A stretch of DNA of 42,718 bases, from positions 1-42,718 of IMG/VR virus record IMGVR_UViG_3300014011_000001. The stretch is one strand, 5' to 3'. Each line of letters opens with the position of its first letter. The stretch's first letter is position 1. Below the pieces are notes generated by a model. That model did not search any database. It saw only the letters and a program-made list of their open reading frames with translations, and was not told the DNA's origin. Below are positions 2,127-37,068 of the stretch, one piece after another. The position numbers and the translations under genes are program-made. Source of the stretch: a virus.

Positions 2127-2280
2127 AATTTCAGGTTTTTTAAGACACCTGGAAGGAGCTGAATTTACAGATTGGCAATTCAGTGAGGATCGGACAGTAA
2201 TTAAAGCTCGTGATATTGAGGGCGATGTATACGAAATTACATTTATACCTAATCCAAAGGGAGGACAAGCCAATGAATAA
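2095..2280 (+). CDS. Hypothetical small early protein (61 aa)
   Basis: In-frame ATG 2095 preceded by GGAGAG. Co-directional with the operon. Confidence 0.45.
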   Translation: MPAISLKQADKISGFLRHLEGAEFTDWQFSEDRTVIKARDIEGDVYEITFIPNPKGGQANE

Positions 2281-2686
2281 TCAAACAAAAATCAATTTAG
2301 AAACTTTTGCAGGTGGCGCATTAGCTGAAAAAACAAATATTGAATTACAAAAAGTGATGGATAACATATTTGATCCAAACACAGATGCTACAAAAGCTCG
2401 TAAAGTAACAATTACTTTAACGCTAAAAGCAGATGAAAAACGTGAAATTATTGCAACCAATGTTGATACAAAATGCACGCTTGTAGCAGCTAAAGGTGTT
2501 GCTACAACAATGCTACTAGGTACTGATTCATCTGGAAAGGTGGTGGGACGAGAACTAGCAAGTGGATCACCTGGTCAAACTTACTTCGGTGATGATGGCA
2601 AGATACGAAATGATGAGGGTGAATTGCTAGAAGATGAAGTGAAAGTAGTTGAGGACACAGTAGTAAAGAAAGTCAAATTCCAATAA
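2273..2686 (+). CDS. Hypothetical early protein (137 aa)
   Basis: ATG 2273 preceded by GGAGG (about 2259). Starts MNNQTKINLETFAGG... No family recognised. Confidence 0.6.
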   Translation: MNNQTKINLETFAGGALAEKTNIELQKVMDNIFDPNTDATKARKVTITLTLKADEKREIIATNVDTKCTLVAAKGVATTMLLGTDSSGKVVGRELASGSPGQTYFGDDGKIRNDEGELLEDEVKVVEDTVVKKVKFQ

Positions 2687-6387: not shown

Positions 6388-6849
6388 GTGGCAATGATAA
6401 TGATGATAGACATTTTACAGAACATCGATGGGAAAGCGACACAAGAAGAAATCGAAGCCACACTTAGGCAATACCGCACGTTCATGCTAACTACTCCAGA
6501 TGAATTCATGCCTTCCATAACGGCTAAATACACACTTGAAATGCCTACATTCTCCAATATAAAACAGTCAAGTGTGGAGATGGCAGCCATTAAAAGCGTA
6601 GATCATATTAAAGAATGCGAACGCTTTTTCACCTGGTTTAATCGTGGCTTATGCAAATTAACAGTAATCGAACGCAGGTTAATCACATTAGCATACTTAG
6701 AAATGGAACCCATGTACAACTATGAAATATGTACAGAATTAAATGTGTCTGAACGAAAGTTTTATCGTATGCGTACCACAGCATTGTATAAATTGGCGTT
6801 AGCTTTAGGGAAAGAAGTATACCAGGAGAACGAGGGGGTTGTGCAATGA
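6388..6849 (+). CDS. ArpU-family phage (late) transcriptional regulator
   Basis: About 150 aa. The C-terminal segment IERRLITLAYLEMEPMYNYEICTELNVSERKFYRMRTTALYKLALALG looks like a sigma-70 region-4 HTH, as in ArpU-type regulators. Located just upstream of the packaging genes. Exact start among 6388/6400/6403 is unclear. Confidence 0.7.
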   Translation: MAMIMMIDILQNIDGKATQEEIEATLRQYRTFMLTTPDEFMPSITAKYTLEMPTFSNIKQSSVEMAAIKSVDHIKECERFFTWFNRGLCKLTVIERRLITLAYLEMEPMYNYEICTELNVSERKFYRMRTTALYKLALALGKEVYQENEGVVQ

Positions 6850-7427
6850 ATTTCGTTCAACCGATTCGAGATATGGATAAAGTGGTGGACGTACAAGAAT
6901 TTCTGGCCAGTAAGAATAAAAGAGATGAATTATTATTCTGCTTTGGCATTTATACAGGATTACGCATAAGCGATATTCTCCGTGTAAAGAAGAGTGATGT
7001 GTACAATAAAGATGTCTTTTACGTTACAGAGATGAAAACAAAAAAGTCCAGGAAAAAAAGCCGAACAGTGATGAGTAAAACACGTATCATCATTGTTCCT
7101 GAACTAAAAAAAATGATTAGTGCCTATGGCAAAGAGTTAAGGGATGAAGAGTATTTATTCAAGTCAAGGCAAGGGAAAAACAAACCCATCACACGTGTAA
7201 GAGCCTATAACATTTTAAGGGAGGCAGCCCTTGCATGTGGGTTAAGTGAAATTGGTACCCATACATTAAGAAAAACATTTGGGTATCATATTTACATGGA
7301 TTCAAAAGATGTAGCTTTACTACAGGATATATTTGGCCATAGCTCAGAACACATTACATTACGTTATATAGGGGTCAACCAGGAGGCAAAGGATAATGCA
7401 CGTAGAAATTTACGCTTCAAACGATGA
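6846..7427 (+). CDS. Small tyrosine site-specific recombinase (catalytic domain only, 193 aa)
   Basis: Catalytic signature GLRISD (Arg), HTLRKTFGYH (His-x-x-Arg), GHSSEHITLRYIG (His...Tyr). No room for an N-terminal arm- or core-binding domain. Translationally coupled to the ArpU-like gene (ATGA overlap). Confidence 0.85.
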   Translation: MNFVQPIRDMDKVVDVQEFLASKNKRDELLFCFGIYTGLRISDILRVKKSDVYNKDVFYVTEMKTKKSRKKSRTVMSKTRIIIVPELKKMISAYGKELRDEEYLFKSRQGKNKPITRVRAYNILREAALACGLSEIGTHTLRKTFGYHIYMDSKDVALLQDIFGHSSEHITLRYIGVNQEAKDNARRNLRFKR

Positions 7428-7462
7428 GAGCAATCTATGAAAAATGGATTGCTTTTTATTTT
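7428..7462 (+). terminator. Rho-independent terminator after the recombinase gene
   Basis: AGCAATC (7429-7435) pairs with GATTGCT (7447-7453), 11-nt loop, then TTTTTATTTT. Confidence 0.65.
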
Positions 7463-7607
7463 GCCCATTAACGGAAGGATGGAAAGATTTCTATCTATTC
7501 AATACATTAGAGGACTAAAGACATTGCTTCAATATAGCCATGTAAAGCTCAATTTAGGGAGTTGCTATGAAGCCACGCTGTGAGCGTGTTTAAAGGGGCT
7601 ACAGGAG

Positions 7608-7633
7608 CTTAACAGAATATAAGATATGTTAAG
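7608..7633. other. Candidate dif/lox-like tyrosine-recombinase core site
   Basis: CTTAACAGAA-TATAAG-ATATGTTAAG: two 10-bp arms in inverted orientation (8/10, outer 7 perfect) around a 6-bp centre, 180 bp downstream of the recombinase gene. Confidence 0.3.
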
Positions 7634-7705: not shown

Positions 7706-7733
7706 TGGCAGGATTTTGGCAGACTATTGGCAG
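7706..7733 (+). repeat. Three direct TGGCAG repeats spaced exactly 11 nt apart
   Basis: TGGCAGgattt TGGCAGactat TGGCAGagatt, starting at 7706, 7717 and 7728, i.e. one helical turn apart. Lies in the 360-nt noncoding region upstream of the late genes. Confidence 0.7.
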
Positions 7734-36501: not shown

Positions 36502-37068
36502 ATGAGAATTATTGGATATGCCCGTGTCAGTACAGATGACCAAAATTTAGACATGCAACAAATGGCCATTGAAAAATACGCTACAGACAAAAAATTAGAC
36601 TTAGTTATGTATGTGGAGAAGGTATCCAGTAGGAATGACGAAAGAACAGAATTACATAATGCAATGAAAGCAGCAACTACAGGTGATCTTTTTGTTGTCT
36701 TTAAATTGGATCGGTTAGCACGTAGCACAAAGGAGTTGTATCAGCTAACTGACGAGTTAAAAAATAAAAAAGTGGACTTTGTTAGTATTAATGATGCATT
36801 TGACACATCAACGCCAACTGGACGTGCTATGTTCGGCATGCTAGCTGTATTCGCCGAGTTTGAAAGGGATATTATTCAACAACGTACAAAGGCAGGATTA
36901 GAGGCAGCAAGGAAGCGTGGACGTATTGGTGGTCGCCCTTCAGTAGATGAGAAAACAAAACGGCACATCATCACCCTTTTTAATGCTGGAGAAAGTGCAG
37001 TTGATATTGCGAAGGAATTTGGAATTGCTCGCAGTACTGTGTATAAAATCTTAAAAAATAGCAATTAA
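36502..37068 (+). CDS. Small serine recombinase (resolvase/invertase family)
   Basis: MRIIGYARVSTDDQNLDMQ with the catalytic Ser. VFKLDRLARS, FAEFERDIIQQRTKAGL, and the C-terminal HTH SAVDIAKEFGIARSTVYKIL. 188 aa. Confidence 0.95.
   Translation: MRIIGYARVSTDDQNLDMQQMAIEKYATDKKLDLVMYVEKVSSRNDERTELHNAMKAATTGDLFVVFKLDRLARSTKELYQLTDELKNKKVDFVSINDAFDTSTPTGRAMFGMLAVFAEFERDIIQQRTKAGLEAARKRGRIGGRPSVDEKTKRHIITLFNAGESAVDIAKEFGIARSTVYKILKNSN

Follow-up and report, generated by a model that had tools for sequence, protein, structure and literature searches.

A catalytic-domain-only tyrosine recombinase and its candidate lox-like site between the late activator gene and the late promoter of a Lysinibacillus-type temperate phage

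Tyrosine recombinases that act at short sites beside their own genes have been described in several settings. In phage P1, the phage-encoded recombinase Cre acts at loxP, a simple site near its gene, present once per genome, in which inverted arms flank an asymmetric centre of 6–8 base pairs (bp). The TnpI recombinase of the Bacillus thuringiensis transposons Tn4430 and Tn5401 uses a compound site, the IRS, with a core of two inverted motifs and two accessory binding motifs. A much smaller recombinase is encoded beside the late-gene switch in thousands of temperate phages of Bacillus, Clostridium and Streptococcus; it is usually annotated as an integrase, as XerC or as a site-specific recombinase, and its role has been acknowledged as unknown in the literature at least since 2012 (PMC3335513). 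Our literature searches found neither a functional study of this mini-recombinase family nor a paper describing the site motif presented here. We analysed one member, rec, in a stretch of 42,718 nucleotides (nt) that constitutes the complete, terminally repeated IMG/VR virus record IMGVR_UViG_3300014011_000001 and is referred to below as the window. The gene is followed by two dyads, sites A and B, that accompany it across phages. Judging from sequence comparison, the chances seem evenly balanced that Rec is an active, stand-alone catalytic-domain tyrosine recombinase whose target lies immediately downstream of its own gene.

The initial annotation of this DNA pointed to a palindrome 180 nt past the rec stop codon, and the palindrome was recovered exactly there (plus strand, 7608–7633). 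The 26-mer has 10-nt arms that are complementary at 8 of 10 positions, with seven contiguous pairs. Its conserved core (7609–7632), 181 nt after the rec stop, consists of a left arm TTAACAGAAT (7609–7618), a variable centre ATAAGA (7619–7624) and a right arm TATGTTAA (7625–7632). Within the window the palindrome is not significant, a degenerate pattern matching once against 0.19 matches expected and at least once in 17 of 100 shuffled sequences; we count site B as real because it is conserved in other phages. A relative 91% identical in this region retains the arms of site B, with its changes located in the centre.

Conservation of the site beside homologous recombinases was strong in both directions, from gene to site and from site to gene. 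For the first, 56 non-redundant regions downstream of recombinases with 50–65% protein identity were compared, and the most enriched k-mers were those of the site B centre, for example TATAAGATAT, found in 17 regions and in 0 controls. Of these 56 representative loci, about 47 have a conserved site B after the rec gene. In most of the 56, the best match to its position weight matrix lies on the same strand, 76–218 nt past the rec stop; where cargo genes are present, site B lies 0.6–1.8 kb further on, with its spacing from site A intact. In the reverse direction, a search independent of the protein found the exact 18-base pattern TTAACAGAAT-N6-TATGTTAA in at least 68 IMG/VR viral contigs. Among the 68 site matches listed, 64 carry rec upstream: in 61 the gene is on the same strand and ends 79–218 nt upstream, mostly exactly 100 nt, and three are cut inside rec. 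Gene and site form a pair.

In its general form, site B comprises an outer arm, A-N-A-A-T, six variable bases, T-A-T-G and a second outer arm. The fixed AAT and TATG on either side of a variable centre recall lox, FRT and dif-type cores, and close relatives with identical arms vary only in the central six bases (ATAAGA, ATATGT, AGTAGA, ATGTAT, GTTAGA, GTAAGA). The outer arms, on the other hand, are clade-specific and always changed on both sides: TTAACA/TGTTAA in the window phage and phiCD6356, AGTTACAC/GGGTAACT in the B. cereus group and BtCS33, GAACACAAC/GTTGTGTTC in phi3626 and CAGACA/TGTCTA in Javan310, with CTTGACA/TGTCAAG and GAGTGCA as further clade types. Across 38 distinct sites, 7 of the 10 arm pairs change on both sides, and the 59 cells with such changes compare with 20.8 ± 3.9 in shuffles, none of 500 of which reached 59; slid controls were far lower.

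Site A (7524–7547, a dyad with no assigned strand), which emerged from the alignment of Lysinibacillus-type loci, was not covered by the initial annotation, nor were the ArpU boxes as a separate element or the great breadth of the module's distribution. Site A is a paralogue of site B in inverted orientation, with the same arms and a different, often one-base-shorter centre. Its centre lies 84–88 bp upstream of that of site B in other clades and about 85 bp upstream in the window, where the dyad is degenerate: the right arm TGTAAAG is retained and the left arm is lost, while Lysinibacillus relatives carry TTTACA-N11-TGTAAA. The complete phi3626 genome contains exactly four copies of the 9-mer GAACACAAC, one at each arm of A and B. 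Because the arms are common to A and B within a phage and differ between phages, they point to one clade-specific protein that reads all four arms, as opposed to two independent hairpins. No protein other than Rec goes consistently with the two sites, and we consider it very probable that Rec binds both.

The properties of the predicted enzyme agree with what had been claimed for it, namely a 193-residue recombinase that keeps the R...HxxR...H...Y residues and lacks the usual N-terminal domains. Rec (phrog_216; gene at 6846–7427, plus strand) has PF00589 as its sole domain, covering residues 21–179 (E 4.6e-25, 88.8 bits against a cut-off of 27.1). Residues R40, K64, H139, R142, H165 and Y174 show no variation in a 14-sequence alignment, and these six catalytic residues are retained in 143–145 of 145 homologues translated from fetched loci. 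An AlphaFold2 model (pLDDT 87.6, pTM 0.82) gave Foldseek matches at probability 1.00 to XerA, XerH, the catalytic domains of the HP1 and P2 integrases, and Cre. Profile matches to PDB entries are restricted to C-terminal catalytic domains, starting at residues 109–193 of Xer chains, and Rec therefore has no core-binding or arm-binding domain. More than 7700 relatives are of near-equal length as against five that are longer, so that the missing N-domain is the norm for the family. A Lys/Arg-rich insertion, KKSRKKSRTVMSK, occupies residues ~65–77 of Rec, in the beta-hairpin that bears the catalytic lysine; it is modelled with low confidence, is present in the Lysinibacillus clade and is shorter or absent elsewhere. 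The insertion might compensate for the missing N-terminal domain by contacting DNA.

The family is widespread. Homologues in known phages include p22 of phIS3501, ORF49 of BtCS33, ORF46 of phi3626 and gp57 of phiCD6356, together with those of phi105 and the Javan phages (phrog_216). The named-phage homologues are 44–50% identical to Rec, occupy the same gene position and have the same A and B sites downstream. Phages of B. cereus, B. thuringiensis and B. anthracis and many streptococcal prophages also carry the gene, and there are thousands of metagenomic relatives. A role as integrase is ruled out, as phi3626 and BtCS33 have full-length integrases of their own elsewhere and the mapped attP of phi3626 lies 12 kb away.

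In the window, rec is preceded by arpU (6388–6849, plus strand), the last but one gene of the early operon, which encodes an ArpU-family late transcriptional activator (TIGR01637, E 9e-25; phrog_248). The translational coupling of the two genes noted earlier can be read directly from an ATGA stop/start overlap at 6846–6849 (plus strand). Such overlaps occur in 65 of 81 related loci (ATGA in 35, TAATG in 30), and the open reading frame (ORF) upstream of homologous recombinases is an ArpU homologue in 66 of 78. The gene for Rec closes the early lytic operon, linked to that of the late activator, and lies outside the region of lysogeny and plasmid maintenance. The arpU–rec operon is closed by an intrinsic terminator (7426–7463, plus strand) with a 13-pair stem followed by a T-run; its hairpin and TTTTTATTTTG tail are kept in relatives in the alignment of Lysinibacillus-type loci. 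Beyond it lie about 360 nt without ORFs, a 72-residue ORF, a GC-rich candidate cos region and the genes for the small (phrog_57) and large terminase subunits. No sigma-70 promoter was found in or around site B, by scan or by eye.

Downstream of site B, three TGGCAG boxes spaced 11 nt apart (7706–7733, plus strand) probably constitute the ArpU binding array of the late promoter, an element separate from the recombinase site. ArpU-type activators require three direct repeats upstream of terS (PMC3753634), and a TGGCAG array of three also follows site B in five other loci from distant relatives. BMBtp14 and Fern, which have no rec, carry repeats of the GCAGAAAA and TACAGAAAA types, candidate ArpU repeats, directly after arpU. 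The core motif and the pair of dyads are absent from the four ArpU phages without rec that were scanned (GBSV1, Fern, NIIg3.2 and BMBtp14); Listeria phage A118 likewise has no rec after arpU, although it was not among the genomes scanned for sites. Since the four ArpU-only phages scanned lack the sites, and two of them have candidate ArpU repeats directly after arpU, the unit of rec, terminator, A and B has the appearance of an insertion that separates arpU from its promoter. Site B as an ArpU operator is ruled out, because ArpU sites are triple direct repeats and B is a dyad, and because the four ArpU-only phages have no site B. Separately, the Parageobacillus phage NIIg3.2 has a single perfect dyad, GTTACAC-N16-GTGTAAC, 55–90 nt after arpU, with an arm sequence of the B. 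cereus type and no mini-recombinase gene after arpU.

Another candidate for the protein that reads the sites was a 158-residue early protein of the window (2210–2686), which matches phrog_997, ‘replication terminator’, at E 7e-42 and has no Pfam family. As a site binder it is ruled out, being absent from five other complete rec-bearing phages.

The similarity of site B to dif, on which part of the initial annotation depended, proved to be of a different kind from the conservation just described. The count of 18 of 28 positions shared with the B. subtilis dif sequence given in the initial annotation is correct, but it lies within chance, since seven other positions in the window reach at least 18 of 28. 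Two Lysinibacillus genomes containing relatives of the phage supplied the dif site of the host group; each genome gave one match, the 28-mer ACTTCCTATAATTTATATTATGTAAACT, which agrees with site B at 16 of 28 positions, a score equalled or bettered at 129 window positions. A dependence on Xer and dif is not borne out by these chance-level matches, although the lox-like half of the original proposal stands, as the site has dyad arms around an asymmetric, variable centre of 6–8 bp. Nor did host chromosomes reveal an attachment core: the Lysinibacillus genomes hold site B only inside prophage, where it is intact, and site B is therefore neither a mimic of dif nor an attP.

These observations lead us to a model built around the single module that each genome carries (the window has one copy of the site). 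Site B would be the crossover core, each of its inverted arms binding one Rec monomer around the asymmetric 6–8 bp centre, and site A would be an accessory binding dyad, giving four arms on which a Rec tetramer could assemble across some eight helical turns. Together with the gene and the terminator, A and B would form a self-contained lox-like module between arpU and the ArpU-dependent late promoter. Given the coupling of its gene to arpU in the final part of the early operon, Rec would be produced together with ArpU once the lytic programme reaches its late stage. With one module per genome and no partner in the host, recombination, presumably during lytic growth, would have to pair the B sites of two phage genome copies (B × B), much as at loxP. 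Such exchange would interconvert monomers and multimers and so supply, or tidy, multi-cos DNA for the cos terminase. The comparisons show the pairing of gene and sites, the architecture of the module and the conservation of the catalytic residues; from these we infer binding, cleavage and strand exchange by Rec and the biological role that would follow. We lean, by a little, towards site B being a true crossover site; multimer interconversion for packaging is put forward more tentatively, as a possible role.

The packaging role takes its appeal from the biology of cos phages. As is known from lambda, cos terminase requires multimeric DNA, so that phages lacking general recombination functions would plausibly benefit from a site-specific way of making multimers or tidying them. 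All rec-bearing phages inspected use cos-type packaging, with HNH and terminase genes or lambda-like Nu1/gpA. Six-frame searches of four rec-bearing genomes (the window, BtCS33, phi3626 and phiCD6356) found no RusA, RecU or RuvC, with positive controls matched, and no junction resolvase or single-strand annealing protein is annotated in the 13-kb early region viewed of phIS3501 and PfEFR-4. No single-strand annealing protein was seen in any of these six phages. A junction resolvase is present, by contrast, in six of six ArpU phages that lack rec (RecU in GBSV1, a RuvC-like protein in Fern, RusA in A118, RusA with Erf in Harrison, and RecU-like proteins in BMBtp14 and B83), often encoded just upstream of arpU. 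Single-sequence phmmer searches with RecU, RuvC-like, RusA and Erf seeds gave no matches in any rec-bearing locus, at a sensitivity so low that two RusA seeds miss each other. One could imagine that a large class of Firmicutes cos phages uses the module to mature its DNA late in infection, in place of absent general recombination and Holliday-junction-resolving genes, with orphan A–B elements of a satellite-like kind borrowing the Rec of a helper phage; we think it doubtful that this broader picture holds, and the borrowing of Rec by orphan-site elements is speculation.

Resolution of plasmid multimers had been suggested as a function redundant with that of a serine resolvase. A small serine recombinase is indeed encoded in the window (36502–37068), but the resolution role is doubtful, as the module is equally common in integrating phages (phi105, phi3626, BtCS33, Javan) and its gene belongs to the early lytic operon, away from the genes for lysogeny or plasmid maintenance.

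Several observations weigh against the proposal of a crossover site and a role in packaging. The sites used for arm covariation were preselected for at least seven of nine arm pairs; this raises the paired percentage but leaves the number of two-sided changes unaffected. Compensatory changes in the arms would fit a nucleic-acid hairpin too. Site A is eroded in the window and so is not essential there; the A–B spacing is 109 bp in the phiCD6356 type, and in Javan310 the sole dyad in the window searched for site A has the arm sequence of B everted, 108 bp away. Accessory sites usually bias a recombinase towards resolution, a poor fit with the making of multimers. The complementary distribution of junction resolvases covers about five independent lineages on each side and comes from annotation or from three Pfam families. 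A mosaic-breakpoint comparison, of pairwise identity left and right of site B, gave only two clear one-sided pairs, too few to point either way. Finally, the sites lie just upstream of the late promoter, a position equally suited to regulation.

This last point leads to the alternative that survives best, which we regard as rather unlikely: Rec would be an architectural or regulatory protein whose loop between A and B tunes or insulates late transcription, or a swivel like a type IB topoisomerase, without strand exchange between two sites. The module lies between the early-operon terminator and the ArpU boxes, its gene is translationally coupled to that of the late activator, and two inverted dyads with unlike centres, 84–88 bp apart on one molecule, suggest a loop more readily than a pair of partner sites. 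Alleles that were inverted or recombinant did not turn up. Bacillus phages have repressors with a recombinase fold, the SPbeta repressor among them. Set against this, the catalytic residues are invariant across the family, and a protein that only bound DNA should have lost them here and there. Between site B and the packaging genes, many phages of the B. cereus type carry 1–3 kb of cargo, and cargo can also part rec from A and B; a swivel, moreover, requires one arm, not four. In an enterococcal phage, ArpU alone is sufficient for terS expression (PMC3753634), which argues against a regulatory Rec.

We find it improbable that the dyads are nucleic-acid hairpins (in RNA, single-stranded DNA or a cruciform), serving for example as a processing, stability or replication signal, with a link to rec that is positional only. 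The complementarity of the arms is held through two-sided changes, including those at outer positions that vary among close relatives, and the isolated 42-nt stretch folds better than its shuffles (−6.1 kcal/mol, z −3.0). In its 146-nt context, however, there is no excess of structure (z −0.06) and the hairpin is absent from the optimal fold; no Rfam family matches; and the loop would be 12–14 nt long with a variable middle. A and B share their arm sequence within each phage, although self-complementarity alone would suffice for a hairpin. The sites also lie between an intrinsic terminator and the late promoter, and their linkage to rec is strict in orientation and distance.

A switch of the FimB/FimE type, in which Rec would invert the ~60-bp segment between A and B and so flip a regulatory element ahead of the late genes, is very improbable. 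Rec is of FimB/FimE size, with weak NCBIfam matches (E 1e-11 and 5e-10); A and B are inverted paralogues whose centres agree at five of six bases in phi3626 and in one further locus, L022; and a spacing of 84–88 bp is close to the shortest lox–lox distance recombined by Cre. Against inversion, the conserved box between A and B is found in a single orientation (13–16 loci against 0), A and B in most cases have centres that match neither in sequence nor in length (one base apart), the window has only a degenerate site A, and the FimB/FimE scores are far below their cut-offs.

The reading of site B as dif-like, served by host XerCD (alone or alongside the phage enzyme) to resolve multimers of a plasmid prophage or to integrate at dif, is close to refuted: the best family-level matches of Rec are XerA, XerD and XerC, the right arm TATGTTAA resembles XerD arms, and the window phage is phage-plasmid-like, but the match to dif is at chance level, other clades have arms of little likeness to these (AGTTACAC, GAACACAAC) although their hosts would be expected to share similar dif sites (only that of Lysinibacillus was recovered), site B is intact in chromosomal relatives, and integrating phages commonly carry the module.

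The phage itself is a temperate phage of the Lysinibacillus type; its nearest protein relatives come from Lysinibacillus, one of them from a 45-kb plasmid. With a ParM-like partition gene and rep genes, and with no large integrase in the window, it resembles a phage-plasmid; it also encodes a CI-like repressor. The 91%-identical relative of its recombinase region lies deep in a 610-kb chromosomal contig of Lysinibacillus pinottii, and lifestyle may accordingly differ among close relatives, chromosomal in that case and plasmid-prophage-like in the window.

Elsewhere the module adjoins two slots for cargo. In nine loci of the B. cereus type, unrelated genes amounting to 0.5–1.7 kb lie between the rec terminator and site A. 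The second slot begins right after the right arm of site B, where homology between phages breaks; in BtCS33, the stretch from 38.7 to 41.7 kb holds 3 kb of small genes of unknown kind, up to the HNH and terminase genes. There is no sign of integron-like capture of cassettes, as the insertions between rec and A–B, or after B, have no extra flanking copies of the site. Modules of A and B without a nearby recombinase gene occur in L100 (~9355), L125 (~2540) and L143 (9300–9610; IMGVR_UViG_2703718624_000002). In the last, two modules with different arms (GTAACA and TTAACA) stand in tandem, and a pair of neighbouring arpU-like genes comes next; the element, which also carries an integrase and a replication module, may be a satellite or a defective prophage. 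In two other loci (L018 and L064), a transfer-RNA-like gene, recognised by eye, stands 30–125 nt past the rec stop in place of the A–B sites.

With a probable target named, consisting of two dyads with clade-specific arms and a variable centre, the function of Rec becomes experimentally testable. The current labels of ‘integrase’ and ‘XerC’ mislead predictors of prophages and of phage lifestyle. If the enzymes are active, they would offer a natural panel of very small recombinases (~180–195 residues) with differing short target specificities, of interest to tool builders, and if the complementary distribution with junction resolvases holds, they would represent a second, site-specific route by which phage DNA is prepared for packaging. 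The clostridial phage phiCD38-2 is, we presume, a relative of phiCD6356, which bears a mini-recombinase. In C. difficile lysogens of phiCD38-2, the RecV-dependent cwpV switch is reported to go from 5% to 95% ON (PMC6127314, PMC5386303), and the phage enzyme might conceivably act on host invertible switches of this kind.

Compared with the systems named at the outset, the locus has the general plan of Cre/loxP, with differences in enzyme, site and setting. Cre (343 residues) has an N-terminal core-binding domain that clamps the DNA, whereas Rec has none, and the kinship of the two is at the superfamily level only (Foldseek E ~6e-5, 13–15% identity). The loxP site has no accessory dyad corresponding to site A. 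Cre serves a plasmid prophage and a headful phage, while the Rec module is found mostly in cos phages, many of them integrating, and would be expressed with the late activator.

The nearest relatives of the Rec catalytic domain in sequence and structure are the Xer systems (archaeal XerA, XerH/difH, XerS/difSL and XerCD/dif), and dif and site B are alike in that the inner arm bases around a 6-bp centre are best conserved. Rec nevertheless falls below the Xer cut-offs (XerA 69 against 220 bits, XerD 59 against 330, XerC 53 against 335, XerS 41 against 267), has no core-binding domain, and is phage-borne next to its own site, which is not dif-like beyond chance. FimB and FimE share with Rec a length of ~190–200 residues, a catalytic domain only, and two inverted sites near their own genes. 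They belong to enterobacterial fimbrial switches and Rec to Firmicutes phages, where the centres are unlike and inversion is not in evidence; the Rec scores are 44.5 against a cut-off of 221 bits and 39.2 against 222 bits (PRK09870/PRK09871). The IRS of TnpI, a compound site beside the gene made up of a core and further binding motifs, has a possible counterpart in the Rec module, where four arms of one sequence, in two dyads, would bind Rec. TnpI is longer and belongs to a Tn3-family transposon, and its accessory motifs are direct repeats adjoining the core; the Rec module has an accessory inverted dyad ~85 bp away, at a phage early–late junction with arpU upstream and terminase downstream. 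By analogy, then, the module would work most like Cre/loxP or the compound site of Tn4430 TnpI, while its nearest relatives by sequence are the single-recombinase Xer enzymes and its size resembles that of FimB/FimE.

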